Origin: an uncultured Clostridia bacterium
GTDB taxonomy: Bacteria; Bacillota; Clostridia; Christensenellales; HGM11417
Assembly: GCA_944332455.1 (NCBI GenBank)
Contig: CALVJY010000023.1
Location: 1-35,429 of the forward strand
Length of the DNA: 35,429 nt
Direction of reading: 5' to 3'
Part shown: piece by piece, positions 6,260 to 34,385 of the stretch
How positions within the stretch are numbered: position 1 is the stretch's first letter
Layout of the letters: each line of letters opens with the position of its first letter
The notes under the pieces: generated by a model
What the model was told of the DNA's origin: nothing
The model's database searches: none
The model's input: only the letters and a program-made list of their open reading frames with translations
Translations under genes and position numbers: made by a program

Positions 6260-6292
6260 CCTTCCGTTCTCCTTTTTTTAAGGCACGCCCTA

Positions 6293-6455
6293 ATGAATTA
6301 AAATCTTTTTCCCGGATCGGCTCTTTCCTCCGACTCCGGCAGGTTCCCTTGCGTTTTTTTTAAATTACGCCCTATCCAAATTAAGTCTTTTCCCCGGATC
6401 GGCTCTTTCCTCCGACTCCGGCAGATTTCCTGATATTTTTTTAATTATGCCTTAT
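6293..6455. repeat. Tandem ~85-bp direct repeat (2 full copies plus a partial third). Each copy holds a hairpin CCGGATCGG-ctctttcctc-CCGACTCCGG followed by a T-rich run on the plus strand
   Basis: Copies start near 6297 and 6383. The shared string ...TTTTCCCGGATCGGCTCTTTCCTCCGACTCCGGCAG(G/A)TT(C/T)CC... is visible directly. Lies between the metalloprotease stop and the plsX start. Confidence 0.75.
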
Positions 6456-6467
6456 CCGATTAAAATC

Positions 6468-8972
6468 TCATCTTCTGCGGCGCCGCCTTGCGCCCTTGTA
6501 CTTTTTCCGGGTGTCCACCACCACGTAGTAGTAGACGGCTCCCACGAAGATCACCGCCATCACAAAGAGGGTCCAGCCCGGCAGCCGGAGGGCGCCAATG
6601 TTGCGGACGGCGGTCAGGCTGAGGCCGGAGACGCTGCCCCCCACGGTGTAGGGTTCCACCGAATGGGAGCGCCCCCGGAAGGTGAGCGTGGTGCCGCGGG
6701 CCACCCGTTCCAGGCTGAACCGGCCGGCCTCGTCGGTCTGTCCGGCCTCCAGCCCGTCGGCGTAGATGGTGAAGATCTCCCCCGACGGCTGGCCGTCCTC
6801 CCCGAGGATCTGCCCGGAGACCGCGCAGTAGCCGTACACCCGCAGGGTGACCCGGCCGTCTGCGGCCCGGACCGCGCCCGGGCCCTCGCCCAGGTCCTCC
6901 AGGGTGAAGTTTTCCAATCTGACGGTGATCAGGTCGGTGTCGTAGAGTTCGGCCGCGATCACCCCGTTTGCAAAGGTAAAGTCCGAAAAGGGCTGGCCGT
7001 TCAGCAAAAGCGTCGGGATCTCGGCCGAAAAGGCCGCCCCCGCCTCGTCGGTCAGGGCGATCTCCAGCCGCACCGGGGTCTTGGCCGCGGCGATCAGTTC
7101 GCCCAGCCCGGCGTTCTCCCCGGTCACGGTCACCTCGGGCAGCTCGTACCCCCGGACAAAAAAGCTCAGCAGATCCCCCTCCCGCACTTCCAGCGAAAAT
7201 TCGGGGCTTTGGGCGGTCAGAACATAGTCGCCGTTGCGGAAGATCTGCACCCCCTCCTCGGGGAAGCGGTCAAAGACAAAAGTCCCGCTGACCTCGAACC
7301 AATCGGGCTCCGGCCGCAGGTCAAAGCTGACCGAGCCGTCCTCGTTCAGCACGATGTTTTCCAGCACCGCCCGGCTGTTCAAAATCCCCTCCCCGGTCAG
7401 GTAGCCGAACACGTTTTCGGTCTCGGCGGCCTCGGCCGAGCCGAAGGACTCGCCTTGGGTGAACACCCCGTCGAAGAGGTAAGTGGAGGAAAGGATCGAC
7501 TCGCGGCGCAGCACGAAGATCTCGTTGTTCCCGTCGATGTTGCCCCCGCTCTCCCCGGCGGCTCCGGGATCCACCCGGTAGCACAGCAGCCCGGTCTCGC
7601 CCGGGCGGAGGAAGGGAAGCTCCCGGTCGATGCCGTCCGCGGTGCGGGTCTTGGCCTCGATGACGAAGAACTGCCCCTCATGCTCCCCGAAGCGGAGGGC
7701 GGACGCCCCCTCGCCCCGAGGGTACAGGGTGTAGCGGATCTGTCCGGCGGAGGCCTCGGCGATCTCGGTCCAGCCGAACTTCTGCCGGTACCAGGCGTTC
7801 AGTCCCTGGGGGGCGCCGGTGGTCACCCCCATGATGTCCCAGACGCCCACGGGGACTTCGGCCCCCTCGGCCGGCTGGTAGTGGTAAAGGTCGGTCACCC
7901 CGAAGCTGCCGCCGCCGGGGACCAGATCGTCCAGCATGTGGATGGTCTCGTGGCAGAGCACGCCGGCCTCGAAGTCCTCGGAGGAGCCTTTGACGTACTC
8001 GTCGGCCAGCAGCACGTAGTTTTTGACCTGATTGCCGTCCAGGGTCAGCTCCCGGCAGAGGGTCTCCCGCTCCTCCTGCGGCCAGCCGCTGAACTCGAGG
8101 GGCGAGAGGGCCTGCAGGGTGCGGGCGGAGCTGACCAGCTCCCACTTGTGAGGCCAGAACGCCGCGGTGTTGGCCGCCGTGTTGTCGGGGGTCAGTCCGC
8201 CGCCGCTGACGTAAAAGGTCAGAAGATCGCTCTCGGCGTCGCGGTTGAGATCCAGCGCCCCCCGGCCGAGATCCTCGGCCAGGCCGTCGCCGTCCAGATC
8301 CACCGCCCCTCCGCTCAGCTCGGCCACCAGGGCCTGTCCCTCGTCCGAACCCAGCAGGGCGGTCAGGGCATTGCGCACCAGAAGCTGTTCCCGGCGGAGC
8401 TTTTCCAGGCTTTCGGCCGGATCTTCGGCGGCGCACAGGCAGACCATGCCGTCCGAGCCGTCTTCGTCGCAGTTTTCGCCGCAGGTCCCGCTGCAGCCGC
8501 AGTCATAGACCTTCAGCTCGCCTTCCGTGTACTGCCAATAGCCCTCGGGATTCGAGGGGGAATAGGGCAGATAGTACGCCTGGGTGTGCCCGTCCACATA
8601 GACCCCGGGCACCTCGACGGTGTGCAGGGTGAAGGCCGACCCGGAGATCTCCGCAAAGTAATTCTTGACCCCCAGCGGCTGCTCGTTGAACAGCGAAAGG
8701 GTCTGTTCCCGCCGGGTCAGGGTCTCTCCCTCGGGGACCTCGGCAAAATAGCCCTCCTCGCCCGAGCCCCCCATTTCGATGAAGAACAGCAGGTTGAGGG
8801 CGGTCCCGGTCAGGCCGGAAGAGCCGGCCGCGCTCTCCCCGGTCGGATCGGAAGAGATCGCGCCGTCCGCGATCTCCCCGGAAGAGCCGTCTGTTTCGGC
8901 CCGGAGGGGAAGCGGGGAGCAGACGGCCGCCAGCCAAAGCACCGCCGTCAGCAGCATGATGAACTTTTTCAT
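6468..8972 (-). CDS. Secreted zinc metalloprotease (HExxH; M6/InhA-like, tentative) with carboxypeptidase-regulatory-like beta domains and a C-terminal membrane anchor
   Basis: Start placed at the internal MKKFIMLLTAVLWLAAVCSP (signal peptide) preceded by AAGGAGGA; the track's start at 9026 is a probable 18-aa over-extension. LCHETIHMLDD HExxH motif. SGQILGEDGQPSGEIFTIYADG...GRFSLERVARGTTLTFRG resembles CarboxypepD_reg. The C-terminus LPGWTLFVMAVIFVGAVYYYVV + KKYKGARRRRRR is a hydrophobic segment plus a basic tail. Confidence 0.6.
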   Translation of the reverse strand: MKKFIMLLTAVLWLAAVCSPLPLRAETDGSSGEIADGAISSDPTGESAAGSSGLTGTALNLLFFIEMGGSGEEGYFAEVPEGETLTRREQTLSLFNEQPLGVKNYFAEISGSAFTLHTVEVPGVYVDGHTQAYYLPYSPSNPEGYWQYTEGELKVYDCGCSGTCGENCDEDGSDGMVCLCAAEDPAESLEKLRREQLLVRNALTALLGSDEGQALVAELSGGAVDLDGDGLAEDLGRGALDLNRDAESDLLTFYVSGGGLTPDNTAANTAAFWPHKWELVSSARTLQALSPLEFSGWPQEERETLCRELTLDGNQVKNYVLLADEYVKGSSEDFEAGVLCHETIHMLDDLVPGGGSFGVTDLYHYQPAEGAEVPVGVWDIMGVTTGAPQGLNAWYRQKFGWTEIAEASAGQIRYTLYPRGEGASALRFGEHEGQFFVIEAKTRTADGIDRELPFLRPGETGLLCYRVDPGAAGESGGNIDGNNEIFVLRRESILSSTYLFDGVFTQGESFGSAEAAETENVFGYLTGEGILNSRAVLENIVLNEDGSVSFDLRPEPDWFEVSGTFVFDRFPEEGVQIFRNGDYVLTAQSPEFSLEVREGDLLSFFVRGYELPEVTVTGENAGLGELIAAAKTPVRLEIALTDEAGAAFSAEIPTLLLNGQPFSDFTFANGVIAAELYDTDLITVRLENFTLEDLGEGPGAVRAADGRVTLRVYGYCAVSGQILGEDGQPSGEIFTIYADGLEAGQTDEAGRFSLERVARGTTLTFRGRSHSVEPYTVGGSVSGLSLTAVRNIGALRLPGWTLFVMAVIFVGAVYYYVVVDTRKKYKGARRRRRR

Positions 8973-9129: not shown

Positions 9130-9300
9130 TGGGTGGCACCGCCACCTTTTTGTACGCCCGCTCTAATTTTCCTTTTTCCACATTTTCGCGCCCGCACAAA
9201 ATTCCTCTTTTCTCCGACTGCTGGGGGTAGGTGCCTAAGGCACCTTTTTGTGCGCCCGCTCCGATTTTCCTTTTCCCGGCTCCCCCGCCTTACATCTGAA
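9130..9300. repeat. Two direct copies of hairpin + T-run units (GGTGGCACCGCCACC-TTTTTGTACGCCCGCTC-TAATTTTCCTTTTTCC / AGGTGCCTAAGGCACCT-TTTTGTGCGCCCGCTC-CGATTTTCCTTTTCCC)
   Basis: Same sequence family, in inverse orientation, as ...GAGTGGGCGT(G/A)CAAAAAGGTGCC(G/T)GTGGCACC... in the blocks at 12820-12860 and 17920-17960. Confidence 0.6.
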
Positions 9301-9366
9301 CATCGGCCAAAACCCGTCGCAGGAGATCAAGTATATTCCCCCGAATATTCAAGAAGTGGGCGTGCC

Positions 9367-12087
9367 TTAAAAAAGATTAAGTGCCAGGGGGAAGAGGTAG
9401 AGCGCGGCGAACACGCCGGCGGCCAGCAGGGCGCAGCAGACGAGGGCGGCCTTTTGCGCGGCCGGGGTCATGCGGGAGAGCAGGGCCTCGGCCCTCTCCC
9501 CCGCCCGGCCGAAGAGCCGGAAGTTTTCTTTGCCAAACCATGCGGCGAGGCGGCGGGAAAGCCCCGCCCGGCAGCGGAAGGCCGTCCACAGCCCGCTCAG
9601 CAGCAGGCCGAGGCCGGTGAGGACCCCGCCCGCGACGAGGCCGGGCGAGCGGTAGACGATCTCCACCGTGTTGAGCCCCTCCTCCAGGGGCAGGGAGAGC
9701 AGGCCGAAGACCTCGGAGACCTCCACGGTCCGGCCGTTGACCCGGGCGGAAAAGCCGGCGTCCCAGGGCAGGGCCACCAGCAGATGTTCCCCGGCCCCGG
9801 CCTCGATCTCCCCGCTCAGCCGGTTGGGCGAGGAGGAGAGCCCCTCGCCGGGGTCGGCGATCAGCTCGGCCAACCGGGCCTCGTCCAGGCCGTACACCCC
9901 GAAGGAGGAACAGGTGAAGGACTTGTGCAGATAGACCTTGACCTGCACGGTCTCGTCCTCGAAGCTGCCCAGGCAGATCAGGCCGTTCTGGGACTGGGAG
10001 GGATAGTCTGCGGCGGCCAGGCGGTTGTTGACGTAGACCGTGGCCGCGCCGTTGATCTCCTCCCGCAGGGCGTTGCTGACCCGGTCGAAGAGGTCGAAGT
10101 AGAGGGTCTGCCGGCCCTCGACCTCGATCTCCCAGCTGACGAAGGCCGTGTTGTCCGAGACCGCGAAGGAAAAGCCCTCCGCCCCGCTCTGGTCGATCAC
10201 GCCCCGGCTGTCGGTAAAGTCATAGGCCCGCATCAGCTCCTCCCCGAACAGCAGGTCGGAGAGGGCGTTCTGGGCGGCCAGGCGGTCGAGGGGAAGTTCG
10301 GTCTGCCCGCCGGGCAAAAAGGTCACCCCCAGGGGGAGAACCCACGGGCTTTCAGTAATGGCATAGTTCGGGGTCTGAAAGACGGCGTCCCCGCCCCCCG
10401 AACGGGAGATGACGTACTTGTGGGAGAACAGGGCGTCGGAGAGCAGGGTGCCGCCGTGGGAGCCGATCTCCATCCAGTAGCCCGAATAGCCCAGCTTTTT
10501 GGCGGTGTCCATCAGGGTGGCCTGGGTCATGGAGGTGTAGTGGGCCAGCGAGGGATAGCCGATCCCGCCCACCCAGTTGACGTCGAAGAGCTTGCGCTCC
10601 ATCTTGACCCGGTAAAAGCTTTCGTCGTCGAGGGCCTCCGCCAGCTCGGCCACGGCCGCGTAGTCGGTCGGCTCTTCGGCGGGCGGGATCAGGTAGACGC
10701 CGCAGCCGAACACGGCCTCCACGGCGGCCAGCGCGCACAGGCACAGGCCGGTGACCGCCCGGAATCGCCACCCCACCCGGTCCAGGGCAAACAGGCACAG
10801 GCCGGCCCCCAGGGCCACCAGGTAGTAGGTCAGCAGGGCGGCAAAGGAGGCCTCGTCCCCCCACAGGGTGGAAGAATAGGCGTCCATTTCCCCGACGTGG
10901 GCGGCCAGCCAGTCGGAAGAGAACCGGACCATGACCAGGCAGACCCCAACCGACAACAGGGTGCCGACAAGCTGCAGGGGCAGACAGTTCTGACGCACCG
11001 GGGCGGCAAGCTCCGGGGCGGCCTCCCCCTCTTTTCGCGCCCCGAGGGCGTCGGCGGCCAGGGAGAGCCCGCAAAACAGGGTGATAAAGGCATAGCGGGT
11101 GGGAAAGGCCATGTAGTCCCCGGTCTGCCACATCTTGTTGACCGGCTCCACAAAGAGGGGGATGAGGGTGAGCGCGAACAGGATCAGCATGGGGTTTTTC
11201 CGGTCCTTCCACAGGGTGTACCCCACGAAGGGCAGGAGGGGAAAGAGGCAAAAGACGGTGGGCACCGTGGTCTCGATGGGGGCGGTCAGGCTGCTGCCGG
11301 CCAGAATGGAGAACAGGCCGCGCATGCGGGCCGAGGCCCCGTAGGCGGACAGCATGGGCAGCCAGACCACGGCGGAGCAAAGCGCCGCCCCGCCGCAGGC
11401 GCGCAGAAAGCGCAGGGCGGCCGCCTTCCGGTTGGGCAGGCCGATCAGCCGGATCCCGGCGTAGAGGGCGAAAAAGCAGACCACCGGAAAGCTGAGGTAG
11501 AGGTTGAGCACGACCTGCAGGGCCAGCAGGATCCCGAACCATCCCCCCTTCCCCCGGTCGAACAGCCGTTCAGCGGCCAGCAGCAGGAGGGGGAACAGCA
11601 TCACCGCGTCCAGCCACATGGGATTCTGGAAGTACATCAGGCAGTAGCCCGAAAAGGCGTAGAACACCGAAAGCCCGGCGGCCGCGAAGGGATGCACCCC
11701 CGGCCGGGCCAGCCGGAAAAAGACCGAGGCGGTCAGGGCCGCGGCGCACAGCTTGCACAGCACCAGGATGTTGAGGAAAAGGGCCATGTCGGCCCGCTCC
11801 CAAAACAGGGCGAGAAAGGTGAAGGGCGAGCAGAGAAAGAAGAAAAAGACCCCCCAGAAGTTCATGCCGCCCCCGTTCAGCATGCTCAGCAAAAAGCCGT
11901 CTTTTCCCGCCAGCATGTCCAGAAACTCGTTCAGCAGAGGGAGGAACTGCTGGTCCATGTCGCCCCAGGCCAGGCTCTTGTCCCCGAAGGGATACAGGCC
12001 GCCCGAGGCATAGATGCCCAGAAGCAGGGCCGCCGTCATCACCGGGGCCAGAAAGATCATGATGTTTTTAAAAATTTTGTCTTTCAT
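9367..12087 (-). CDS. YfhO-family polytopic membrane protein (putative glycosyltransferase/lipid-linked glycan transferase)
   Basis: N-terminal MKDKIFKNIMIFLAPVMTAALLLGIYASGGLYPFGDKSLAWGDMDQQFLPLLNEF...NFWGVFFFFLCSPFTF matches the YfhO N-terminal pattern; many TM segments, then a large C-terminal extracytoplasmic domain. Start ambiguous: the track start 12147 (MCRF..) runs into a structured repeat, so the MKDK start at 12087 is preferred. No strong RBS at either. Confidence 0.75.
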   Translation of the reverse strand: MKDKIFKNIMIFLAPVMTAALLLGIYASGGLYPFGDKSLAWGDMDQQFLPLLNEFLDMLAGKDGFLLSMLNGGGMNFWGVFFFFLCSPFTFLALFWERADMALFLNILVLCKLCAAALTASVFFRLARPGVHPFAAAGLSVFYAFSGYCLMYFQNPMWLDAVMLFPLLLLAAERLFDRGKGGWFGILLALQVVLNLYLSFPVVCFFALYAGIRLIGLPNRKAAALRFLRACGGAALCSAVVWLPMLSAYGASARMRGLFSILAGSSLTAPIETTVPTVFCLFPLLPFVGYTLWKDRKNPMLILFALTLIPLFVEPVNKMWQTGDYMAFPTRYAFITLFCGLSLAADALGARKEGEAAPELAAPVRQNCLPLQLVGTLLSVGVCLVMVRFSSDWLAAHVGEMDAYSSTLWGDEASFAALLTYYLVALGAGLCLFALDRVGWRFRAVTGLCLCALAAVEAVFGCGVYLIPPAEEPTDYAAVAELAEALDDESFYRVKMERKLFDVNWVGGIGYPSLAHYTSMTQATLMDTAKKLGYSGYWMEIGSHGGTLLSDALFSHKYVISRSGGGDAVFQTPNYAITESPWVLPLGVTFLPGGQTELPLDRLAAQNALSDLLFGEELMRAYDFTDSRGVIDQSGAEGFSFAVSDNTAFVSWEIEVEGRQTLYFDLFDRVSNALREEINGAATVYVNNRLAAADYPSQSQNGLICLGSFEDETVQVKVYLHKSFTCSSFGVYGLDEARLAELIADPGEGLSSSPNRLSGEIEAGAGEHLLVALPWDAGFSARVNGRTVEVSEVFGLLSLPLEEGLNTVEIVYRSPGLVAGGVLTGLGLLLSGLWTAFRCRAGLSRRLAAWFGKENFRLFGRAGERAEALLSRMTPAAQKAALVCCALLAAGVFAALYLFPLALNLF

Positions 12088-12149
12088 GTCCGTATCATGT
12101 ACCGTTTTAACATGTCTCCGTCCAAAACGTGCCGCAAAGCGGCACATAT

Positions 12150-12960
12150 CGAGCGGCAGCGCCGCCGGGCTGGAACCCCCGTAAAGAATGAAGGGTAAAA
12201 AGTTACTGTTCTCGCTCTGTCTTTCAGTCGATATGTTTCCCTGACGGGAAACTCGATATGTTTGCCAAAGGCAAACTTGATATTTGCCCGCACAGCGGGC
12301 AATCGATATGAATGGCCTCGTTTATTGTCTTTTCCCTCTATAATTTGTCACTCCATATTGAAGCAAAGATGAAGGCAGAGCCCCCCCAACCCCGGCCATT
12401 CGTATTGGATGAAAACAGAACAAAAGCTATGAATTTATAACCGCACTGCTTTCAATGTGTTTTGTCCACAACGTGACGCGAAGCGGCACATATCGAGCAA
12501 AGTGAGCGCAGCGGAACTTTGCATATCGAATGGCCGTCAGGCCATATATCGAGTTTGCCGAAGGCAAACATATCGACATAAAACTTATCGCAGGAACAAA
12601 TAATCAATATTCCCGCTTTCTAAGAGTGGGCGCGCCTTCCTGGCGGCGATGCCGCCCAGGAACAAAGAATTAGTTTCCCCTCTCCATACGAGTGGGCGTT
12701 CTCGCCCGGTGCCGCCAGCACCCGCATATCGAATGGCCGTCAGGGCATATATCGAGTGCCGCATTGCGGCACATATCGACTTAAATTCATCGCAGGATAA
12801 ATCAATCATTTTTCCGCTTCATACGAGTGGGCGTGCAAAAAGGTGCCGGTGGCACCCCTGGCGGTACCTATCAATCTTAGCACAAAAGCCGGCATTTTGC
12901 AAGAAATCTTTCCCATGTCCCCTAAGGATTTGACGAATTTCCCGAAACATGCTATACTAG
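12150..12960. repeat. Structured leader block A (~800 bp), paralogous to block B at 17345-18000. Contains three ATATCGA/hairpin arrays (12228-12316; 12489-12580; 12724-12780), AGGAACAAA...ATACGAGTGGGCG units and GGTGCC..GGCACC hairpins
   Basis: Direct alignment by eye with 17345-18000. Shared long strings include GTTCTCGCTC..TCTTTCAGTCGATATGTTTCCCTG(A)CGGGAAACTCGATATG, CCCGGCCATTCGTATTGGAT.AAAACA.A.CAAAAGC.AT..ATTTATAACCG.ACTGCTTTCAATGT, CATATCGAATGGCCGTCAGG(G)CATATATCGAGTGCCGC.TTGCGGCACATATCGAC. Confidence 0.85.
12930..12958 (+). promoter_or_regulatory. Sigma-70-type promoter: TTGACG - 17 nt - TATACT
   Basis: ttgacgaatttcccgaaacatgcTATACT read directly; ~125 nt upstream of the ATG at 13084. 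Confidence 0.6.
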
Positions 12961-12965
12961 AGAAA

Positions 12966-13035
12966 GGCGGGAACCACCTCTCTCCGGCTTTGCCGGACTG
13001 ATCCTCCTCCTTTTTGGTTTCCCGCCTTTCTTTTT
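12966..13035 (+). promoter_or_regulatory. Leader terminator/attenuator-like structure: GGCGGGAACC...(inner hairpin CCGGCTTTGCCGG)...GGTTTCCCGCC followed by TTTCTTTTT
   Basis: 9/10-bp stem with a ~40-nt loop containing a second hairpin, then a U-run, sitting between the promoter and the RBS AAAGGAGGG of the DUF1113 gene. Confidence 0.4.
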
Positions 13036-13083: not shown

Positions 13084-14154
13084 ATGCAGCTCTTTTTGCA
13101 GTTGGCCTGCCTGTTTGCGGTGGGCGCGGTGATCGGGTGGTGCATCGAACTGGTGTTCCGCCGCCTGTTCACGGCCAAAAAATGGATCAACCCCGGGTTT
13201 CTGAACGGGCCCTATCTGCCCCTGTACGGCTTCGGGACGGTGATCCTGTACGAGATCAGCGACCTGCCCCTTGCCGTGGGGTGGAAGATCGTCCTGTTCG
13301 GCGTGCTGCTGACCGCCGTGGAATATGCGGCGGGCATTCTGTTCATCAAGGGCATGAAGATCAAGCTGTGGGATTACTCCAAGCGGTGGGGCAACATCCA
13401 GGGCATCATCTGCCCCCTGTTCTCCCTGCTGTGGACGGCCGCCGGCACGCTGTTTCTGTTCTTTGTCTATCCCTGGCTGCAGGGCGTGCTGGCCTGGTTT
13501 GCCGAGCGCGCCCTCTCCCCCTTCTTCCTGGGGGTCTTTTACGGGGTCTTTCTGGTGGACCTGGGGGCCAGCTTCGGGCTGGGCGCCCGCCTGCGCAAGC
13601 TGGCCGCCGAGGCCAGGGAGACGCTGGCCTACGAGGAACTGAAGGCCTATCTGCGCCAGCGGGCCAAAAAGCTCCGCAAAAAGGTCAGCTTTCTGCTCCC
13701 CTTCCGCTCCGACCGCTCCCTGAAGGAGAACATCCGCGCCTTTCTGGACAGCCGCCGGCACCGGGAAGGGCCCGTGACGGCAGGCGGACCGGACGGCGAG
13801 GCCCCGGCCTCCCCGCCGGAAGGCCCTGCGCCGGAAGATCCGGGCTTTGAAAAGATCATCCCGACCGCCCCGGAGCGCGGAGAGCCGATCCCGCAGCCGG
13901 AAAGCCTGCCGGAAGATCCGGCCGGGGAGAGCGCGAAGGCGGCCGGCCGAGCGGAATGCGGAGGGCCGGCCCTTCAGCCGGAGGGCAGGCCGGACCCGGA
14001 CGCCGGGGGATCCCTGAAGGACCCGATCGCCGAACGCGGAGAGGCGGAAGCCACCGCGCCGGAAGATCCGGATTTTGAGCAGGCCCGGAACACTGAAACT
14101 TCCGCCCCGAAGGGGCCGAAAACCTGTGACCGGCCGGGCAAAAAGGGCGATTAA
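13084..14154 (+). CDS. DUF1113-like (putative ABC-transporter type IV) polytopic membrane protein with ~150-aa disordered C-terminal tail carrying P/E/A-rich repeats
   Basis: LFAVGAVIGWCIELVFRRLF...GPYLPLYGFGTVILYEI...WDYSKRWGNIQGIICPLFSLLW pattern; the tail contains repeated A(P)EDP(G/D)FE.. motifs. RBS AGGAGGG. Confidence 0.6.
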   Translation: MQLFLQLACLFAVGAVIGWCIELVFRRLFTAKKWINPGFLNGPYLPLYGFGTVILYEISDLPLAVGWKIVLFGVLLTAVEYAAGILFIKGMKIKLWDYSKRWGNIQGIICPLFSLLWTAAGTLFLFFVYPWLQGVLAWFAERALSPFFLGVFYGVFLVDLGASFGLGARLRKLAAEARETLAYEELKAYLRQRAKKLRKKVSFLLPFRSDRSLKENIRAFLDSRRHREGPVTAGGPDGEAPASPPEGPAPEDPGFEKIIPTAPERGEPIPQPESLPEDPAGESAKAAGRAECGGPALQPEGRPDPDAGGSLKDPIAERGEAEATAPEDPDFEQARNTETSAPKGPKTCDRPGKKGD

Positions 14155-14219
14155 AACGGGCAAAAACGGTTTATATATAAAAGTTAAGGCTATGGAAAAA
14201 TACCGCTTGAGGTGACGAC

Positions 14220-14912
14220 ATGGAGCTGATCGAATGCAAGGATCTGTGCAAGACCTACGGCACGGGCGATCTGGAAGTCCGGGCCCTGGACGGGGCCTCC
14301 TTTTCGGTGGAAAAAGGGGAGTTCGTGGTCATTTTGGGCCCCTCGGGGGCGGGCAAGAGCACCCTTTTAAACCTGCTGGGGGGCATGGACACCGCCACCT
14401 CGGGTACCCTGCGGGTGGGCGAAAAGACAGTGACCGCCCTCTCCGAAAAGGAGCTGAGCGCATACCGCAGAAAGGACATCGGCTTTGTCTTTCAGTTTTA
14501 CAACCTGATGGCCAACCTGACCGCCCTGGAAAACGTGGAGCTGGCCCAGGGCGAGACCGGCATGACCGCCGAAGAGGCCCTTTCCCTGGTGGGTCTGGAA
14601 AAGCGGAAGAACAACTTTCCGCCCCAGCTTTCGGGCGGGGAACAGCAGCGGGTGGCCATTGCCCGGGCCATCGTCAAAAACCCCCTGCTTTTGCTGTGCG
14701 ACGAGCCCACGGGGGCGCTGGACAGCAGGACGGGGCGGGCCATTCTGGGGCTGCTTTCGGACCTGTGCCGCAAGGATGGCATGACCGTGATCGTGGTCAC
14801 CCACAACGCCGAGCTCGGAAAGCTGGCCGACCGGCTGATCCGGGTCAATGACGGGAAGATCGTGGAAAACGCGCTGCAGACCGCGGCCTCCCCGGAGGAC
14901 ATCACATGGTGA
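14220..14912 (+). CDS. ABC transporter ATP-binding protein (MacB/LolD/FtsE-like)
   Basis: GPSGAGKSTLLNLLGG Walker A; LSGGEQQRVAIARA signature; LLLCDEPTGALD Walker B. Overlaps the permease gene by 7 nt. Confidence 0.92.
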   Translation: MELIECKDLCKTYGTGDLEVRALDGASFSVEKGEFVVILGPSGAGKSTLLNLLGGMDTATSGTLRVGEKTVTALSEKELSAYRRKDIGFVFQFYNLMANLTALENVELAQGETGMTAEEALSLVGLEKRKNNFPPQLSGGEQQRVAIARAIVKNPLLLLCDEPTGALDSRTGRAILGLLSDLCRKDGMTVIVVTHNAELGKLADRLIRVNDGKIVENALQTAASPEDITW

Positions 14913-17341
14913 GGCGGCCCAATCCGGCGGCCGTCCTCCGCCGCCGCATCCGCCGGGAGATCCGGGACAACTTTCTGCAGTTTCTGGCCGTCATCCTGAT
15001 CGCCTTCCTGGCGGTCACCCTGTTCTGCGGGCTGACCGCCAACTACAAAAAGCTGGAGCGCCGGGTGGATGTCGTCTACCGCGAGGGCAGCATGCCCGAC
15101 GTCTTTGTGCTGACCTCGGGGCTGGAGGAAGGCGACCGGGAATTCGCCGCCGCCCTGGAGGGCGTGGAGGCCGCGGAGAGCCGGCTTTATCTGACGGCCG
15201 AATCGGGAAGCTCCCAGGTCGTTCTGGCCGTCACGGAAGGGACCCCGACCCTGTCCAAGCCCATCACCGAGGCCGAGGGCAGCATCTTCTGCGACGAGCA
15301 CATGCTGTTCCGCCTGGGCGCGGAGGTCGGAGAGGCCTTTCCCCTCTCCCTCTCCCTGGACTTCGGCTCTCTGCTGGAGCAGGCCACCGGAACGCCGGCC
15401 GAAACGGTGCTCTCCCTGCTGGATCTGCTTTTGCTGGACGGCGGGGTGAACGTGTTCCGCCAGGAGGCGCTGACCCTGCAGGTCCGGGTGGACGGCACCA
15501 TGCTGCACCCCGAGGCCATCTCGGCCTCCTCGACCTCGGCGGGGATGCTGACCATGACGAGGGAGGACCTGAACGGCCTGATCGAGGCGGCGCTGCGGGA
15601 AAACTTCACGGAGGCCGGCGTCACGGCGATCCTGAACGTCCTGGCCGAGACGGACCTGAGCAATCAGATCCTGCTGCAGGTGGCCGACGGGCAGGAGGAC
15701 GCCGTGACCGAGGCCCTGCGGGACTGGTTCGGGAACAAGGAGACCTCCAACCTGATGATGGTCTACGACCGGGAATCCTCGCCCGGCAACGCCGTCATCG
15801 AGAGCGACATCCGGCAGGCGCAGATGCTGACCTACGTCTTTCCGGTCATCTTTTTCCTGGTGTCGGTGCTGGTCATTTCCACCACCATCACCCAGCTGAT
15901 CAACCGGGAGCACACCGCCATCGGCACCCTGAAGGGGCTGGGCTTTTCCAGGGGGGCCATCCTGCGGCACTACATGGGCTACGGGGTGGTGCTCTGCCTG
16001 CTGGGCGGGATCCTGGGGGTGATCGTGGGGCCCATTCTGATCCCCGCGGTCATGGACATCAAAAACAACCTCCTCTACCAGCTGCCGAATCTGGCCCCGC
16101 CCTTTGCCTTTTGGGAATACGGCGCCTGCCTGCTGCTTCTGGTGGGGGTGGCTGCGCTGGTCTCCTTTCTGGTCTGCCGGAGGGAGATCGCCTTAAAGCC
16201 CGCCGAGAGCATGCGCCCCGTCGCCCCCCGCACCGCCCGCATGACCGCCTTCGAGCGGAGCCGGCTGTGGAGAAAATGCCCCCTTTCCCTGCGCATGGCC
16301 TGGCGGAACATCGTCCGCCAAAAGGGCCGGGCCCTGATGGTGATTTTGGGCGTGATGGGGTGCACCGCCCTGTTGGTGTGCGGCTTCGGCATCGACAACA
16401 CCCTGGACAACAGCGTGTACACCGAGACCGAAGTCCTCTTCCCGGCCGAACTCAACCTGACTTTGGAGGACGGGGCCGATCTCCCCTCCCTGACCGGCAT
16501 CACCTTTGAAAGCTATGCCCGCCAGAACGGCCAGCTGCAGTCGGATTCGGGAGTGCGGGACGCCGTCATCCTGGTCTTTTCCGCCGACACTCAGATGTTC
16601 GGCGGGGGGACGCTGTCCGACGAGGGCGGCCTTTTGAGCGAGACCCTGGCCCAGAAGCTGGGGGTGGGGGTCGGCGACACCCTGACGGTGATCTGCGAGG
16701 GGATCGCCCGGGAGATCGAAGTGACCGGCATCTACCGCTCGGGCTTTACCCAGGCCCTGGTGCTGACCCCCTCAAACGGGGATCTGTTCGGGCTGGAGCC
16801 CTCCTATGCCTACGGCAAGATCACCGATCCCTCCCTTTCCCAGGCCGACGCCGCCGCGCTCTTGTCTTCCATGGCCGGGGTGCAGAGCGTGACCACCACC
16901 GAGGACACCCTGCAGACCGCCGAGGACATTCTGGCCACCGTGCGGATCATCACCGCCACCGTCAAGGTCTTTGCGGTGCTGCTGGCCGTGGTGGTGCTTT
17001 ACAACCTCTCGCTGCTCAACTTCCGGGAGCGCTTCCGCGACATCGCCACCTTGAAGGTGCTGGGCATTCCCAACGGCCAGATCGCGGCCAGCCTGATCTG
17101 GGAGAGCATGGCCCTGACGCTGGTGGGCACCCTGATCGGCCTGCCGCTCGGGTATCCGGTCATGGTGCTGATGCTGACCATCAACCAGACCGAGCTTCTG
17201 ACCTTCCTCTACCTCATCCAGCCCCTGTCCTACCTGATCTCGGCGGCCATCACCCTGGTGACCTCGTTCGCCGTCAACTTCCTGCTGGGCAAGCGGGTCA
17301 GAAAGGTGAAAATGATCGAATCGCTGAAGAGCGTGGAGTAG
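14906..17341 (+). CDS. ABC transporter permease, FtsX/MacB family (two FtsX-type 4-TM modules with large extracytoplasmic domains)
   Basis: 811 aa; N-terminal TM LQFLAVILIAFLAVTLFCGL; C-terminal FtsX-like TM bundles (VFAVLLAVVVLYNLSLLNFRERFRDIATLKVLG...). Translationally coupled to the ATPase. Confidence 0.88.
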   Translation: MVRRPNPAAVLRRRIRREIRDNFLQFLAVILIAFLAVTLFCGLTANYKKLERRVDVVYREGSMPDVFVLTSGLEEGDREFAAALEGVEAAESRLYLTAESGSSQVVLAVTEGTPTLSKPITEAEGSIFCDEHMLFRLGAEVGEAFPLSLSLDFGSLLEQATGTPAETVLSLLDLLLLDGGVNVFRQEALTLQVRVDGTMLHPEAISASSTSAGMLTMTREDLNGLIEAALRENFTEAGVTAILNVLAETDLSNQILLQVADGQEDAVTEALRDWFGNKETSNLMMVYDRESSPGNAVIESDIRQAQMLTYVFPVIFFLVSVLVISTTITQLINREHTAIGTLKGLGFSRGAILRHYMGYGVVLCLLGGILGVIVGPILIPAVMDIKNNLLYQLPNLAPPFAFWEYGACLLLLVGVAALVSFLVCRREIALKPAESMRPVAPRTARMTAFERSRLWRKCPLSLRMAWRNIVRQKGRALMVILGVMGCTALLVCGFGIDNTLDNSVYTETEVLFPAELNLTLEDGADLPSLTGITFESYARQNGQLQSDSGVRDAVILVFSADTQMFGGGTLSDEGGLLSETLAQKLGVGVGDTLTVICEGIAREIEVTGIYRSGFTQALVLTPSNGDLFGLEPSYAYGKITDPSLSQADAAALLSSMAGVQSVTTTEDTLQTAEDILATVRIITATVKVFAVLLAVVVLYNLSLLNFRERFRDIATLKVLGIPNGQIAASLIWESMALTLVGTLIGLPLGYPVMVLMLTINQTELLTFLYLIQPLSYLISAAITLVTSFAVNFLLGKRVRKVKMIESLKSVE

Positions 17342-17344
17342 GCG

Positions 17345-18000
17345 CTTCGCTTCCGGCCAGACGCAAAATTCGCCTTTGGCGAATTTTGGCCGGACTTGAG
17401 GGGACAAGGCGGCAGCGCCGCCGGGCAGGAACGCCCGTAACAAATGGCATATAAAAGAGTTGCCGTTCTCGCTCCTTCTTTCAGTCGATATGTTTCCCTG
17501 CGGGAAACTCGATATGTTCCCTTCGGGAACTCGATATTTGCCCGCTTTGCGGGCAATCGATATGAATGGCCGGTAGGTTTGCACAAAAGGGTTTTCTCCC
17601 GCTGAATTTACTGCGAATCAACAGGCAGAATCCCCAAACCCGGCCATTCGTATTGGATAAAACAAATCAAAAGCCATAGATTTATAACCGTACTGCTTTC
17701 AATGTATTTCTGTCCACAACGTGCCACAAAGTGGCACATATCGAGCGGCACGATAGGGCCGCATATCGAATGGCCGTCAGGCCATATATCGAGTGCCGCT
17801 TTGCGGCACATATCGACATAAACTCATAGCAGGAACAAAGAATTAGTTTTCCCACTCCATACGAGTGGGCATATTGCCCGGCGGCGCTGCCGCCCAGGAA
17901 CAAACAATCATACTCCTGCTCAGTCAGAGTGGGCGTACAAAAAGGTGCCTGTGGCACCCGGCGACGCCGCCCATGGGTTTGGGATATAAATTTTGGGATA
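17345..18000. repeat. Structured leader block B (paralogue of block A). Starts with an inverted R1 hairpin-2 copy (17345-17405); ATATCGA/hairpin arrays at 17485-17580 and 17737-17820
   Basis: See block A; lies upstream of the ZIP transporter gene. Confidence 0.85.
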
Positions 18001-18003
18001 ACA

Positions 18004-18070
18004 TAGAGATAGAACAGATAAAATGTTAACATAGGGTGGTTTTCAGCCCTTCCTAGAGATAGAACAGATA
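18004..18070 (+). promoter_or_regulatory. Two 17-bp direct repeats TAGAGATAGAACAGATA (18004-18020; 18054-18070) flanking a 10-bp perfect palindrome ATGTTAACAT (18023-18032). Candidate metal-regulator operator/promoter of the ZIP gene
   Basis: Read directly; 35-100 nt upstream of the ATG at 18105 (RBS GAGGAGGTG). Confidence 0.45.
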
Positions 18071-18104: not shown

Positions 18105-18866
18105 ATGTGGGATCTGATCCTGATCAGCGCGGCGGCCGGGGTCCTGGGCACGGGACTGGGGGCGCTGCTGGGGACGACGGTGTTTCAGCGGTCCGAAAAG
18201 GTGCTGGGGGCGCTGCTGGCCTTTGCCGGGGGCACCATGGTGGGCCTGGTCTGTTTTGAGCTGGTACACGAGGCGGCAGAGGCCTCCTCGGTGTGGTTTG
18301 CCGCCCTGGCCCTTTTTACGGGCATGACCCTGGTGTGGCTGCTGAATCTGGTGCTGGGCGACTGTCCGGCGCACGAGCACCACTTCTGCGACGGCCACTG
18401 CGAGGACGAGGATGCGCACGCCCCCAAAGGGATGCTGCGGGCGGGGTGGTTCATGCTGTTTGCCATCACCCTGCACAACCTGCCCGAGGGGCTGGCCCTG
18501 GGAGCCACGGGCGAGCTGACCACCCAGCTGGCCCTGGCCCTGATGATCGCCCTGCACAACCTGCCGGACGGCATGGCCATCGGCGCCTCCCTGCGGATGG
18601 GGGGGATGAAAAAGAGCCTGTGCGTGCTGCTGCCCGCCCTGACCGGCCTTGCCACCCTGCTGGGCGCGGCGGCCGGGCGGCTGCTGGGCGAACTCTCCCC
18701 CCTGCTGACCGCCTTTATGCTGGGACTGGCCGGGGGCACCCTGCTGTTCGTCACCTTCGGGGAGATCCTCCCCCGAAGCCGGGAGCTGGCCCCGGGGAGC
18801 AGGCTCTACACCCCCCTGGTGCTGCTGGGCGTGCTGGCAGGCCTGCTGCTGACCGCCGCCCACTGA
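18105..18866 (+). CDS. ZIP-family divalent metal (zinc) transporter, ZupT-like
   Basis: Two HNLPEGLALG / HNLPDGMAIG signature motifs; His/Asp/Glu-rich loop HEHHFCDGHCEDEDAH; ~8 TM. Confidence 0.85.
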   Translation: MWDLILISAAAGVLGTGLGALLGTTVFQRSEKVLGALLAFAGGTMVGLVCFELVHEAAEASSVWFAALALFTGMTLVWLLNLVLGDCPAHEHHFCDGHCEDEDAHAPKGMLRAGWFMLFAITLHNLPEGLALGATGELTTQLALALMIALHNLPDGMAIGASLRMGGMKKSLCVLLPALTGLATLLGAAAGRLLGELSPLLTAFMLGLAGGTLLFVTFGEILPRSRELAPGSRLYTPLVLLGVLAGLLLTAAH

Positions 18867-18878
18867 CTTCATCCCCCA

Positions 18879-18910
18879 AAGGGCCGGAGGAACTTCCCCC
18901 GGCCCTTTTG
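18879..18910 (+). terminator. Rho-independent terminator (GGGCCGGAGGAACTTCCCCCGGCCC + TTTTGT)
   Basis: Immediately after the ZIP stop. Confidence 0.55.
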
Positions 18911-19131
18911 TCCGCCCTGCGGCCCCGCATTTAAATGGCTGACAAAGCCCGCCCGGCCCTCTCGGAAGGGACAATGCCGGCCCCGCCCGGCTTGTTCCAT
19001 AACGGGCGCCCGCCTCTCGGAAACGCGCAGAAAGGCGGGAGGGAGCGATCGGAGCGGCTGCCCCTCAGAAGAGCCAAAGGGCCGCCCGAACCATCGGGGC
19101 AAGGTCGGGGCGCTGTGAAAAAAAACAGAGT

Positions 19132-19157
19132 AAAAGGGCGCCAAGGGGCGCTTTTTT
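19132..19157 (+). terminator. Rho-independent terminator (AAAAGGGCGCC-AAGG-GGCGCTTTTTT)
   Basis: GC stem plus a T6 run. Confidence 0.55.
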
Positions 19158-19200
19158 CCTGCCGCCGGCGCAAAATTTTTCCCCATCTCCCTTCAAACGC

Positions 19201-19266
19201 TTGCCATGGGCCGCTTTTTTTTGCTATAATCAGTATGATATCAGACTTTATGATAACAGACTGATT
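19201..19266 (+). promoter_or_regulatory. marR promoter (TTGCCA - 18 nt - TATAAT) with a near-perfect 16-bp palindrome AGTATGATATCAGACT (19232-19247) inside a larger AATCAGT...ACTGATT symmetric region just downstream of the -10
   Basis: Read directly; typical position for a MarR autoregulatory operator. Confidence 0.55.
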
Positions 19267-19277
19267 CGGAGGTCGTC

Positions 19278-19733
19278 ATGGTCGTAAATCAAGAGATCAA
19301 CACCCTTGTGAACGCCTATTGCAGACTGCGGGACAGACAGTACGCGGTTTACAGCCGCTGCGCAAAGCGGCACGGTCTGACCGCCAACGAACTGTTCGTC
19401 CTCGACATTCTCTGGTTTGCGCCGGAGGGCTGCACGCAGACGGAGATCTGCGAACGGCTGTCCGCCAACAAACAGACGATCGCCGCCGTGATCGACAGAT
19501 TCCGGAAGAAGGGCCTTCTTTGGTACGAAGAAGTGGCCGAGGACCGGCGCAACAAGCGCATACGCTTTACCGAGGCCGGAAGGCAGTATGCGGGCGCGGT
19601 CATTCCCCCCGCCGCCGGCGCGGAAAATCTGGCCATGGCGGAGCTGGGGATCGAAAAGCTGGCCGAACTTGTCAAGCTTACCGCGAGGCTGACGGAAAAC
19701 ATGGAAAAGCAGTTTGCCGCCCTGTCTGACTGA
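19278..19733 (+). CDS. MarR-family transcriptional regulator
   Basis: wHTH core ...GLTANELFVLDILWFAPEGCTQTEICERLSANKQTIAAVIDRFRKKGLL...; 151 aa; RBS GGAGGT. Confidence 0.85.
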   Translation: MVVNQEINTLVNAYCRLRDRQYAVYSRCAKRHGLTANELFVLDILWFAPEGCTQTEICERLSANKQTIAAVIDRFRKKGLLWYEEVAEDRRNKRIRFTEAGRQYAGAVIPPAAGAENLAMAELGIEKLAELVKLTARLTENMEKQFAALSD

Positions 19734-19749
19734 CGGCACAGAGGAAGAG

Positions 19750-21869: not shown

Positions 21870-22320
21870 CCCCCCAGCGCTGATCCCTCCCAAAAACGGG
21901 GCCTTCCCGGCTCCTCATGCAGGACCCGGTCCCGGACAGCCGCCGCTGTCCGGGTCTTTCAGACCGGCCTAAGTTTTTCAGTCTGACCGGACAGATCAAG
22001 CCCAGACTTTTGTGACCTTGACCGGGCGGCCGGAGCCGTCGGGTTTTTTCTGTGCGCTCCGGCCAAACGCCCCTGCTTTCCGCGGCCCGGAGCCGGCCAG
22101 AACTCCTCTCTCTCCGGCCCGGACTTTCAGGTCTTTGGAGCCGGGGCCTCCCCTGTTCAGGATCAGGTCCGGACTTTTGTTTCCTCACCGGGCTGCCGCC
22201 GCTGTCCGGGTTTTTTCTGTGCGCTCCGGTCAAATGCTTTTGCTTTCCGCGGCCCGGACAGATCAGGTCCGTTTTTCTCAACCGCGGTTTTTCAGGCCCT
22301 TCCGCGTTCAGATCAGGCCC
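21870..22320. repeat. Non-coding tandem direct repeat, ~165-bp unit x ~2.5 (shared strings GGGTTTTTTCTGTGCGCTCCGG(C/T)CAAA(C/T)GC...TTTCCGCGGCCCGGA; GATCAGGTCCG...). Includes a hairpin + T-run after DUF1848 (21931-21960)
   Basis: Copies beginning near 21925, 22020 and 22187. Lies between the convergent DUF1848 and XRE genes; the track's 327-aa minus ORF across it is a low-complexity artefact. Confidence 0.7.
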
Positions 22321-33851: not shown

Positions 33852-34324
33852 GCTTTCCCGACTGCCCCGCTCCCGCAAGAGCCGGACGGGGCCGGCAGAA
33901 CGGACCGGCATACGCTCGGAGAGCCTCCGGCGCACCGCGGCGGCCTTGGATCCGCCCGCTCAGGTCCGTTTGCCCTTTCAGTATAGCGCATTTCCCGCCC
34001 GAAATCACGGAAAAAAAGTTGCGACATCTCTTCGCCGCCTCCTTTTTTCAGTCCTGCGGGTCTTATTCTCCGCATCCTTTCCCTGTTTTTGGAGTGCTCC
34101 GCTTGCTTTTTAACGCCCACTCTGAAACAAGCCCATGATCGATCTTATTCCCTGCGCTTGCTTTCAGTTAGGGAAAACGATCACAGCCGCATAAAAAATC
34201 AAAGACCGAAAAAAATTCGGTCTCCGAAAGCGGTTTTATTCCCTATTTAACGGCATAGCTGAAAAGCTGTTGCAGGAAAAGCAAATGATTTTCCCTTGCG
34301 ATCAGAGCGGACGTTCTCACCTGG

Positions 34325-34385
34325 CGGTGCTGCCGCCTTCCCTCAAGTCCGACCGATTTTGCCTGCGGAAATCGGTCGGAAAAGA
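34325..34385. repeat. Degenerate R1 hairpin-2 copy (CCCTCAAGTCCGACCGATTTTGCC-TGC-GGAAATCGGTCGGA)
   Basis: Same architecture as 70-115, with compensatory stem substitutions; directly downstream of the TraX-family gene. Confidence 0.55.

Follow-up and report, generated by a model that had tools for sequence, protein, structure and literature searches.

Structured interspersed repeats, among them the repetitive extragenic palindromic (REP) sequences with their bacterial interspersed mosaic elements (BIME), the BOX elements and the Neisseria intergenic mosaic elements (NIME), have received much study in Proteobacteria, pneumococci and Neisseria and very little in the uncultured Clostridia that dominate the gut and rumen. 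The usual view of REP sequences is that their spread takes place at the DNA level and their action at that of RNA. Their hairpins carry a guide tetranucleotide, GT[AG]G, 0-2 nt 5' of the hairpin foot (PMC6006769). In a 35,429-nt contig of an uncultured Clostridia bacterium (GCA_944332455.1, CALVJY010000023.1; this whole stretch of analysed DNA is called the window below), two intergenic blocks, A (approximately 12105-12870) and B (approximately 17345-17965), probably belong, as large mosaic copies, to a family of interspersed repeats that is present in multiple copies in Clostridia of the gut and rumen, resembles BIME/REPIN or NIME and folds as a single strand. The modules of this family are shuffled, duplicated and exchanged between copies and strains; its hairpins are under selection for pairing while their sequence is free to change; and its compact relatives have a fixed polarity, immediately 3' of a co-directional gene. 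The design is unusual: a 7-nt word is kept across families, the hairpins between the words may vary as long as they pair, and the single strand, RNA or DNA, is predicted to form a rod or ladder of stacked four-way junctions, with 7-bp rungs (TCGATAT:ATATCGA) between pairs of hairpins.

The original prediction had described two paralogous, structured, non-coding blocks at 12150-12960 and 17345-18000, upstream of two transporter operons. Both blocks are real, with their extents corrected to those given above: 12080-13000 and 17340-18060 align with a mean column identity of 77% (MAFFT), and blastn of the window against itself matches 12153-12699 with 17409-17936 (75.9% over 564 nt) and 12722-12832 with 17759-17870 (87.5%), besides finding a tandem duplication inside block A (12521-12635 and 12724-12836, 79%). 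Their non-coding and structured character is confirmed by gene annotation and by folding. Pfam annotation places block A between yfhO (minus strand, start near 12087) and a CmpB/ABC/FtsX operon (13084-17341), and block B between that operon and a ZIP transporter gene (18105-18866); the minimum free energy (MFE) of block A as RNA is -293.2 kcal/mol compared with -230.9 +/- 8.6 kcal/mol in dinucleotide shuffles (z-score -7.3), and that of block B is -270.3 compared with -190.9 +/- 6.0 kcal/mol (z-score -13.3). The window contains 19 exact copies of ATATCGA/TCGATAT, where 1.03 are expected and 100 shuffles yielded at most 4, and all 19 fall inside blocks A and B.

The grammar of the arrays is an alternation of the heptamer ATATCGA with perfect or near-perfect hairpins of 14-26 nt, each different in sequence. 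Each block has one minus-strand array on its left and one (block B) or two (block A) plus-strand arrays on its right, facing outward, and at its centre a long-range stem, AATGGCC...GGCCATT, whose enclosed loop is not conserved between A and B (Table 1). The right arrays open with the lead (T)CCACAAC and are followed by one or two tail modules (TCGCAGGAACAAA...CCCNCT-loop-GAGTGGGCG) with G+C hairpins. In the MFE fold, block B is a single rod, closed by a 20-nt long-range complement (17408-17427/17875-17894) together with TCGATAT:ATATCGA pairing; its last hairpin, with the adjoining A-run, is terminator-like when read on the minus strand. The two hairpin pairs originally cited as compensatory do not hold as such, since GTTTGCC-AAA-GGCAAAC in A and GTTCCC-TTC-GGGAAC in B represent replacement of an entire hairpin with pairing kept, and at TGCCGC-att/ttt-GCGGCA the blocks differ in the loop alone; one genuine double substitution separates GTGACGC..GCGGCAC (12473-12489) from GTGCCAC..GTGGCAC (17721-17737). 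No transposase accompanies the blocks, as had been stated, but arrays in inverted orientation are present, since the left part of each block is an inverted TCGATAT array that had been overlooked.

These blocks are not the sole copies: further modules of this mosaic lie elsewhere in the window (Table 1), and more copies are present in relatives. The terminator-containing module that opens block B has copies at 55-110 and 35195-35247. The contig begins and ends in one repeat (1-76 matches 35353-35429 at 98.7%, the hairpin loop alone differing); evidently it was within this repeat family that assembly stopped at either end, and assemblies of relatives end inside block B. Upstream of a ZIP gene whose protein is identical or at least 90% identical, the modules differ from strain to strain, occupying from 620 to approximately 1280 nt, with the left array present or absent: one relative (L334) keeps the synteny and has the counterpart of block B expanded to 1085 nt; another (L338) has other genes upstream of ZIP and a 1277-nt mosaic without the left array; two more (L336 and L339) differ again; and in L001 the hairpin of block A is found at the matching position of block B. 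A unit of approximately 195 nt, comprising lead, array, tail and hairpins, occurs singly or in tandem (as in L251) in close-relative loci. Such a family, taking up to 1.3 kb of intergenic space, fragments metagenome assemblies, coincides with strain-level rearrangements and can be mistaken for riboswitch-like leaders.

Beyond close relatives, one genome per species was scanned for three exact ATATCGA copies 14-21 nt apart, a pattern that makes the distribution and copy numbers lower bounds. Among the matches listed, 65 of 120 loci are true arrays, with hairpin spacers of differing sequence, and every one of the 65 that has a listed record title belongs to a metagenome-assembled genome of gut or rumen Clostridia; the named carriers are Oscillospiraceae, Acutalibacteraceae, Ruminococcaceae, Christensenellaceae, Eubacteriales and "Clostridia bacterium", and the listed matches from other phyla are simple tandem or coding repeats. 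On viral contigs, the three-heptamer pattern occurs at 103 loci, nearly all of them coding or simple tandem repeats, with one true element, in two records. A metagenome scan for the CCACAAC lead plus array returned 102 loci, of which approximately 8 are true, all of them from close relatives.

The commonest form is a compact element of approximately 180 nt, four TCGATAT followed by four ATATCGA, which was parsed in 26 elements. It comprises a variable hairpin (hp0), which TGC...GCA often closes and which in some elements is a complete bidirectional terminator; a left half of linkers L1-L4 (TCGATAT) with short hairpins of 10-13 nt, then a central hairpin and segment X''; and a right half of linkers R1-R4 (ATATCGA) with longer hairpins of 15-19 nt, then CAAAA. 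The first hairpin after R1 has a conserved tandem G.A internal loop, which the GAGC..GCGGA internal loop in hairpin 2 of right array 1 of block A resembles. The distinct array hairpins collected number 172 + 41. With the covariance model of the compact element the window arrays score just 20-33 bits; they are a high-G+C sub-type with the CCACAAC lead. At one locus (L084:2452-2634), all four L linkers read GCGATAT and all four R linkers ATATCGC, with a normal element on the same contig at 6448-6637; this variant is one concerted event that preserved L:R complementarity.

Two further forms of neighbourhood were observed. In Christensenellaceae (L018:6150-6450, L020), the ATATCGA array stands alone, with no left half, between inverted runs of GAAAGTTGAAA-type repeats, a partner module that differs from the one in Oscillospirales. 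Compact elements also lie directly after tRNA genes, following a five-tRNA cluster (L029:2956-3378) or a single tRNA (L033:1958-2043), and in both cases nothing but the operon's bidirectional terminator, which is hp0, intervenes.

Selection on secondary structure, in RNA or single-stranded DNA, had been proposed from the two window copies and is borne out by the compact elements. A covariance model was built on the ladder; the alignment was fitted to this model, so its pairing counts lean towards the structure. The model recovers 47 full-length elements at 97-201 bits, and the compact element has a defined polarity because the opposite strand of these loci scores only 50-90 bits. In the 47-element alignment, 94.4% of cells are paired, compared with 79.8% in shuffles; 40 of the 67 pairs have changes on both sides; the covariation score is 0.39 versus 0.13, with 0 of 500 shuffles as high; and slid partners are 25-44% paired. 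Even so, the signal from the hairpins is overwhelming, and it can be seen in the raw sequences of the 26 parsed elements. The predicted MFE structure, for RNA and DNA alike, is a ladder of four 7-bp rungs (L1:R4, L2:R3, L3:R2 and L4:R1) with four-way junctions between them (z-scores of -4.9 to -7.2).

The upstream gene is co-directional with the compact element in 32 of 40 cases, and in 24 of 26 when it lies within 75 nt; the downstream gene shows no such tie (23 in the same orientation, 24 in the opposite one). Such one-sided polarity fits elements placed at transcript ends and speaks against replication as what determines their orientation. In several loci only 10-20 nt separate R4 from the ribosome-binding site (RBS) and start codon that follow it, too few to hold a promoter, and the array therefore belongs to that mRNA. 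The tail and lead stems of the window modules tolerate G.U on one strand only, which for the tail stem CCCNCT/GAGTGGG is the plus strand. With moderate confidence, we propose that the array element would act as a folded single strand, most likely as RNA within terminator-proximal or intercistronic parts of transcripts, where it might serve as a structural module at the transcript end or between genes (an exonuclease barrier, an insulator or a platform for protein binding), while the spread and reshuffling of the repeat would occur at the DNA level.

Several observations weigh against this proposal. No mobilizing enzyme for the arrays was found: no transposase, integrase, REP-associated tyrosine transposase (RAYT) or HUH gene recurs within 3.5 kb on either side of 77 loci, where clustering of neighbours yields only a four-helix-bundle gene, discussed below, and context genes. 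The rungs are near-invariant, so that their pairing is unproven by covariation, and a frequent L1 variant, TCGAGAT, is uncompensated in R4 (10 of 47 unpaired), being compensated in X'' instead. G.T and A.C oppositions are equally rare in array stems, at approximately 1% each among 213 distinct hairpins; structured RNAs usually tolerate G.U. The loops on the ATATCGA-reading strand are GNA or GNNA, with no purine preference of the kind seen in RNA GNRA loops (GTCA, GATA and GTTA are common), and this rule holds in both halves, that is, on opposite strands; GNA and GNNA are very stable loops of DNA mini-hairpins. In block B, and at several other loci, the element comes after a full intrinsic terminator, so that its transcription may be weak, and action of the arrays at the RNA level is itself inferred. 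The RNA and DNA levels of action need not be mutually exclusive. An apparent 11:1 bias between G.T and A.C oppositions in the right half of 26 elements vanished when all 213 hairpins were counted, and it is not used as evidence for RNA.

The alternative that survives best concerns a protein partner. Eight arrays selected by pattern are directly followed by a gene of approximately 116 codons, the product of which belongs to PF05635 (23S_rRNA_IVP; Pfam E 1e-22; PDB 2rld E 2e-21) and the start of which lies 10-20 nt past the last ATATCGA (L031, L039, L045, L046, L048, L083, L097 and L121); four of the eight share one context, after a RumA-like methyltransferase. The close homologues of this protein form more than 4000 clusters. 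In five of five sampled homologues (P0103, P0052, P0051, P0110 and P0144; loci L342-L356), the array is directly upstream, its last ATATCGA 10-15 nt before the RBS/ATG, and the five genes occupy three unrelated contexts (aminotransferase, MFS transporter and RumA-like methyltransferase), in one of which the element is reduced to the forward array only. One locus (L121) has a second copy of the left half-array after the PF05635 gene; small open reading frames (ORFs) downstream of the four-helix-bundle gene gave no informative Pfam match. PF05635 proteins are pentamers of four-helix bundles, and their genes are reported to be linked to clustered regularly interspaced short palindromic repeat (CRISPR) loci and arrays, another repeat-RNA context (PMC3936711, PMC10910872); ORFs of this family are carried by intervening sequences (IVSs) of 23S rRNA according to Ralph & McClelland (1993), as cited in PMC3936711.

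It is possible, if doubtful, that the arrays are the nucleic-acid partner of this Avd-like, pentameric protein, the array before the four-helix-bundle gene being an autoregulatory leader or home site. By analogy with REP and RAYT, and with the same reserve, solo arrays, those of the window among them, would be scattered sites of binding or processing, or else derivatives that are non-autonomous. The recurrence of the arrangement in unrelated contexts, and the retention of the forward array alone in one of them, speak for a partnership; but no PF05635 gene was found in the window or in the related contigs analysed, approximately 80% of arrays have no adjacent four-helix-bundle gene, the small gene may merely ride on the repeat or be captured by it, and the sampled proteins, all at least 78% identical, represent one subfamily. 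Because the window lacks a PF05635 gene, this link is kept apart from the window finding, as a lead to the biology of the family. Extending it, the array and the protein could, although we think this unlikely, form a hitherto unrecognized two-part system of Clostridia in which the pentamer recognizes AUAUCGA/ATATC motifs between hairpins, four full and one partial motif per array; a master array would precede the protein gene, and hundreds of solo arrays would be the targets. If true, such a system might serve in processing or protection of transcript ends or in propagation of the repeat, and would supply the first function for a very large orphan family known from 23S rRNA IVSs, diversity-generating retroelements (Avd) and CRISPR neighbourhoods. 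In any event, the constant position of the array ahead of one PF05635 subfamily gives a concrete, testable entry point to a family of orphan proteins that has thousands of members.

A purely DNA-level role is likewise unlikely. On this account, the arrays have no RNA role and are single-stranded DNA hairpin sites for a recombinase or an HUH-type enzyme, comparable to REP/RAYT, the ends of IS200/IS605 or attC; the array would work on the ATATCGA-reading strand, and the blocks would be hot spots of recombination or insertion. The C-GNA-G and C-GNNA-G mini-hairpin loops on that strand in both halves, and the almost wholly Watson-Crick stems in which G.T is about as frequent as A.C, would be expected of such sites; synteny breaks and gene-cassette differences fall at the blocks; copies within one genome are alike (L048, L056 and blocks A and B of the window); and the threefold complementarity of X, X' and X'' needs no switch to explain it, provided that the forward array is folded in the top strand (X:X'') and its inverted counterpart in the bottom strand (X':X). 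However, none of the enzymes sought near the 77 loci recurs there, a polarity tied to the upstream gene fits transcripts better than replication, the tail and lead stems show strand-specific G.U tolerance, and the hairpins in one array all differ, unlike the sites recognized by HUH enzymes (PMC6006769).

The same segments invite comparison of the ladder with a second fold. An alternative 12-bp helix, X:X'', has 97.1% of its cells paired and 7 of 12 pairs compensatory, its column 7/283 being U-A in 36 sequences and G-C in 8; for hp1, the corresponding values are 97.2% and 6 of 7. The pattern can be read as one strand switching between ladder and cloverleaf, or each array may fold on its own strand, X:X'' on the top and X':X on the bottom. 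A natural variant of reduced form, in which X:X'' is a local hairpin followed by the forward array and L2-L4 are absent, favours X:X'' as the first hairpin of the forward array. It is very unlikely that the compact element is a switch, whether of RNA between the ladder (hp1 and the L:R rungs) and a cloverleaf closed by X:X'' that frees the AUAUCGA linkers, or of DNA by inversion between X and X'': although two mutually exclusive helices share a 5' strand, both with compensatory changes, and X:X'' includes the L1 variant that R4 leaves uncompensated, 0 of 51 full-length elements are in the inverted state, folding on two strands accounts for the same data, and the ladder is far more stable in MFE predictions.

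The blocks are not ligand-sensing leaders of the ABC or ZIP transporter genes, and it is highly improbable that each is any other large structured cis-regulatory leader (riboswitch-like or metal-sensing) of the transporter operon that follows, as the original prediction had thought plausible. Both blocks do lie upstream of transporter genes and are strongly structured, and some relatives are clearly in 5' untranslated regions (UTRs). However, the promoter of the CmpB/ABC/FtsX operon lies downstream of block A, which for this reason is not in the 5' UTR of that operon, and the operon before block B has its terminator in the opening module of that block. The approximately 195-nt unit stands before an ORF whose N-terminus reads as FtsY-like in L315 and before an unannotated one, starting MTFEEIKQKEHLYYAK, in L260; related arrays also occur ahead of RNase HII-like ORFs, downstream of tRNA operons and where two genes converge. 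The placement of compact elements follows the upstream gene and not the downstream one. The rebuilding of the region upstream of an identical ZIP gene in different strains, together with the promoter downstream of block A, excludes a gene-specific leader. A promoter search of the centres of blocks and compact elements found no convincing divergent promoters, and just 3-5 of 26 compact elements have a sigma-70-like promoter immediately upstream. An unpaired, conserved core of the aptamer kind is lacking, all that is conserved being the 7-mer or a frame around variable stems. Consistent with the earlier failure to recognize any riboswitch class, Rfam 15 has no match in the whole window at gathering threshold, be it to a riboswitch, a leader, an sRNA or a large ornate RNA such as ROOL, GOLLD, OLE or HEARO; blocks A and B gave only two irrelevant eukaryotic matches of 11-16 bits at E<=5, 16 canonical loci gave only tRNAs and one SAM riboswitch, all outside the elements, and the L029 element gave nothing meaningful at E<=10. 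The other possibility raised at the outset, a repeat-element family not previously known, is the one that is supported.

That the blocks arose by recent segmental duplication, or are a mobile element now dead, without selection for structure, has next to nothing to recommend it beyond the two direct-orientation copies 5 kb apart that flank an operon, given an identity of just approximately 76%, hairpins swapped with pairing preserved, a grammar and strong covariation common to several families of Clostridia, and many more copies in relatives; the original view that no dead element is hitch-hiking here is upheld, and plain duplication, which would have left two copies only and no covariation, is rejected.

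Other known kinds of element were considered. A CRISPR array, which has direct repeats of approximately 23-55 nt, spacers of similar length that are not palindromic and, as a rule, cas genes close by, is rejected by the 7-nt repeat, the palindromic 14-26-nt spacers, the 3-4 units, the inverted pairs and the lack of cas genes in the window. An integron attC site, an imperfect R''-L''...L'-R' palindrome with a GTTRRRY core that lies in cassette arrays beside intI, is rejected by differing core words, the lack of an integrase and the scattering of elements among housekeeping genes. ToxI-like repeats of type III toxin-antitoxin systems, which are identical tandem units of approximately 34-36 nt directly ahead of the gene for the toxin endoribonuclease, are rejected by units that are non-identical and a linked gene, PF05635, that is not of the AbiQ/ToxN type. 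As regards miniature inverted-repeat transposable elements, the half-arrays are mutually inverted, no target-site duplication was recognized, and copies differ chiefly by hairpin replacement. Features of intrinsic terminators are found at 17362-17388, in tail modules on the opposite strand and in hp0 of L029, L033 and L068; array hairpins have no T tract. Resemblances to a DnaA box (CCACAAC), a Spo0A box (TATCGAA) and rolling-circle nick sites (CTYGATAT) were dropped because flanking bases vary and the context is unsuitable. Block A had no blastn match in phage and plasmid collections, and full-text searches of the literature on the heptamer, on REP-like elements and hairpin arrays of Clostridia, and on PF05635 returned no description of an ATATCGA-hairpin array, but only general rules for REP and notes on the CRISPR linkage of PF05635.

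The remaining features of the window are collected in Table 1, and several observations adjoin them. The ZIP neighbourhood varies among relatives: a MarR-MFS pair between ZIP and DUF1848 is present or absent (L334, L338, L339, L335 and L003 compared with window 18866-20919), an Fpg gene takes its place in L339, and upstream of ZIP L338 has CN-hydrolase and sugar ABC genes, not YfhO/CmpB/ABC/FtsX. A 17-nt direct repeat, TAGAGATAGAACAGATA, occurs twice just 5' of the ZIP RBS (18004-18020 and 18054-18070) and once in L001 and L339; it is a candidate operator or promoter element of that gene. Further modules combine a constant frame with a variable, covarying stem, namely stems inside CCGGCCAGACG...GGCCGGACTTGA and TCACC-loop stems such as GGAAATTTAC-TCACC-GTAAATTTCC and GGCTTTTGC-TCACC-GCAAAAGACC (L338:8700-9700, L334:8900-9400, window 35250-35330). 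Intergenic tandem repeats whose sequences are not related to the heptamer arrays lie at 6273-6468 and 21994-22258, with units of approximately 82-116 nt and 99 nt that are 79-83% identical. The RNase III gene (3724-5208, minus strand) encodes 494 amino acids, with the catalytic domain (18-148) and the dsRNA-binding domain (410-475) set apart by approximately 260 residues that have no Pfam match, an unusual length for a bacterial RNase III. The 3' part of the CmpB-like gene (13817-14078) contains 3-4 in-frame copies of CGCCGGAAGATCCGG-type repeats, which suggests that the protein has a repetitive C-terminal extension.

Table 1. Repeat modules and associated sites of the window, in order of position (nt; strand is that on which the feature is read)
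Feature	Position	Strand	Details
Mosaic region, contig start	1-115	-	Same module repertoire as the blocks
Mosaic of tail modules between convergent genes	9131-9365		Two reversed, forming hairpin+T5 terminator-like sites (9131-9165, 9229-9264); one forward (~9305-9365)
Truncated array unit, left edge of block A	12105-12166	+	Overlaps 5' region of divergent yfhO
Degenerate lead and hairpin of that unit	12120-12128, 12129-12145	+	Lead GTCCAAAAC; hairpin GTGCCGCAAAGCGGCAC
Linker and hairpin of that unit	12146-12152, 12153-12166	+	ATATCGA; hairpin GCGGCAGCGCCGCC
Tail/spacer of block A left unit	12167-12227	-	Aligns with 17423-17484
Block A left array	12228-12309	-	ATATCGA read on minus strand
Linkers of block A left array	12228-34, 12253-59, 12277-83, 12303-09	-	12277-83 is variant TTGATAT
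Hairpins of block A left array	12235-52, 12260-76, 12284-12302	-	
Block A central long-range stem	12311-12400		AATGGCC 12311-17 / GGCCATT 12394-12400; degenerate linker CGTATTGGA after right arm
Conserved lead of block A right unit	12401-12465	+	Common to block B and loci L001, L336, L339
Block A right array 1	12466-12576	+	CCACAAC lead 12466-72; four hairpins
Linkers of block A right array 1	12490, 12523, 12546, 12570	+	ATATCGA
Two tail modules of block A	12577-12721	+	CATAAA..TCGCAGGAACAAA..CCCGCT-loop-GAGTGGGCG, then G+C hairpins; GAGTGGGC at 12624, 12690
Block A right array 2, tandem duplicate	12726-12779	+	Three linkers, at 12726, 12749, 12773
Third tail module of block A	12780-12870	+	GAGTGGGC at 12825; hairpin GGTGCCGGTGGCACC
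Sigma-70-type promoter of CmpB/ABC/FtsX operon	12930-12958	+	TTGACG-17-TGnTATACT, TG extension, 10/12 match; outside the element, downstream of block A
Terminator-containing module opening block B	17345-17407	+	CCGGCCAGACG-(AAAATTCGCC-TTT-GGCGAATTTT)-GGCCGGACTTGA; starts 4 nt past FtsX stop codon
20-nt arm of block B	17408-17427		GGCGGCAGCGCCGCCGGGCA; 100% complementary to 17875-17894; closes the rod in the MFE fold
Block B left array	17485-17563	-	Linkers at 17485, 17509, 17531, 17557; three hairpins in between
Block B long-range stem	17565-17648		AATGGCC 17565-71 / GGCCATT 17642-48; variable loop
Block B right array	17714-17816	+	CCACAAC lead 17714-20; four hairpins; linkers at 17738, 17763, 17786, 17810
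Two tail modules of block B	17817-17965	+	GAGTGGGC at 17863, 17927
Mosaic region	34100-34375	-	GCCCACTC 34115-22; GGCGGCAGCACCGCC-type hairpin; GGTCGGACTTGA module
Mosaic region, contig end	35185-35429	-	Terminator module; constant-loop (GGTGA), variable-stem hairpin; further modules

Compared with described systems, the arrays resemble the REP, BIME and REPIN of Enterobacteria and Pseudomonas in being multi-copy extragenic hairpin units, in direct and inverted orientation, that form strain-variable mosaics with other short motifs, that lie at gene 3' ends and between convergent genes, often beside terminators, and the single strand of which is predicted to fold. They differ in lacking GTAG/GTGG, their hairpins being flanked on both sides by ATATCGA (or TCGATAT); in conserving the 7-nt linker and not the hairpin, so that one array holds 3-4 different hairpins whereas REP has one hairpin family per genome; in having as recurrent neighbour a PF05635 four-helix-bundle gene and no nearby RAYT; and in their host, Clostridia. 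They are not REP proper, which is defined by a guide tetranucleotide, uniformity of the hairpin and a RAYT gene, the last of which was not found near the loci. NIME are likewise intergenic, strain-variable mosaics at points of rearrangement in which short constant words frame variable segments; their dRS3, however, is an inverted repeat of 20 bp around a variable centre and a site of phage or insertion-sequence integration, whereas the constant word of the arrays is an asymmetric 7-mer, the variable parts are perfect hairpins and no integrating element was seen. Pneumococcal BOX elements (boxA-boxB(n)-boxC) are also modular and intergenic, with a variable number of internal units, structure if transcribed and no transposase of their own, but their modules are conserved in sequence, whereas the arrays conserve only frames and linkers, and the sequences are unrelated. 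With titrating RNAs of the CsrB/RsmZ type, the arrays share a short motif repeated on or between hairpins that could in principle bind several copies or subunits of a protein; there, the motif is GGA in loops and here AUAUCGA in linkers, many arrays are not free-standing genes, and half of each compact element bears the complementary motif. The IVSs of 23S rRNA also place a PF05635 gene beside a strongly self-complementary element; the arrays, in contrast, are in ordinary intergenic DNA and not in rRNA, and a heptamer-punctuated architecture is undescribed for IVSs. The closest known kinds are thus the BIME/REPIN, NIME and BOX mosaics, from all of which the ATATCGA-hairpin grammar of these Clostridia is different and among which it is uncatalogued.

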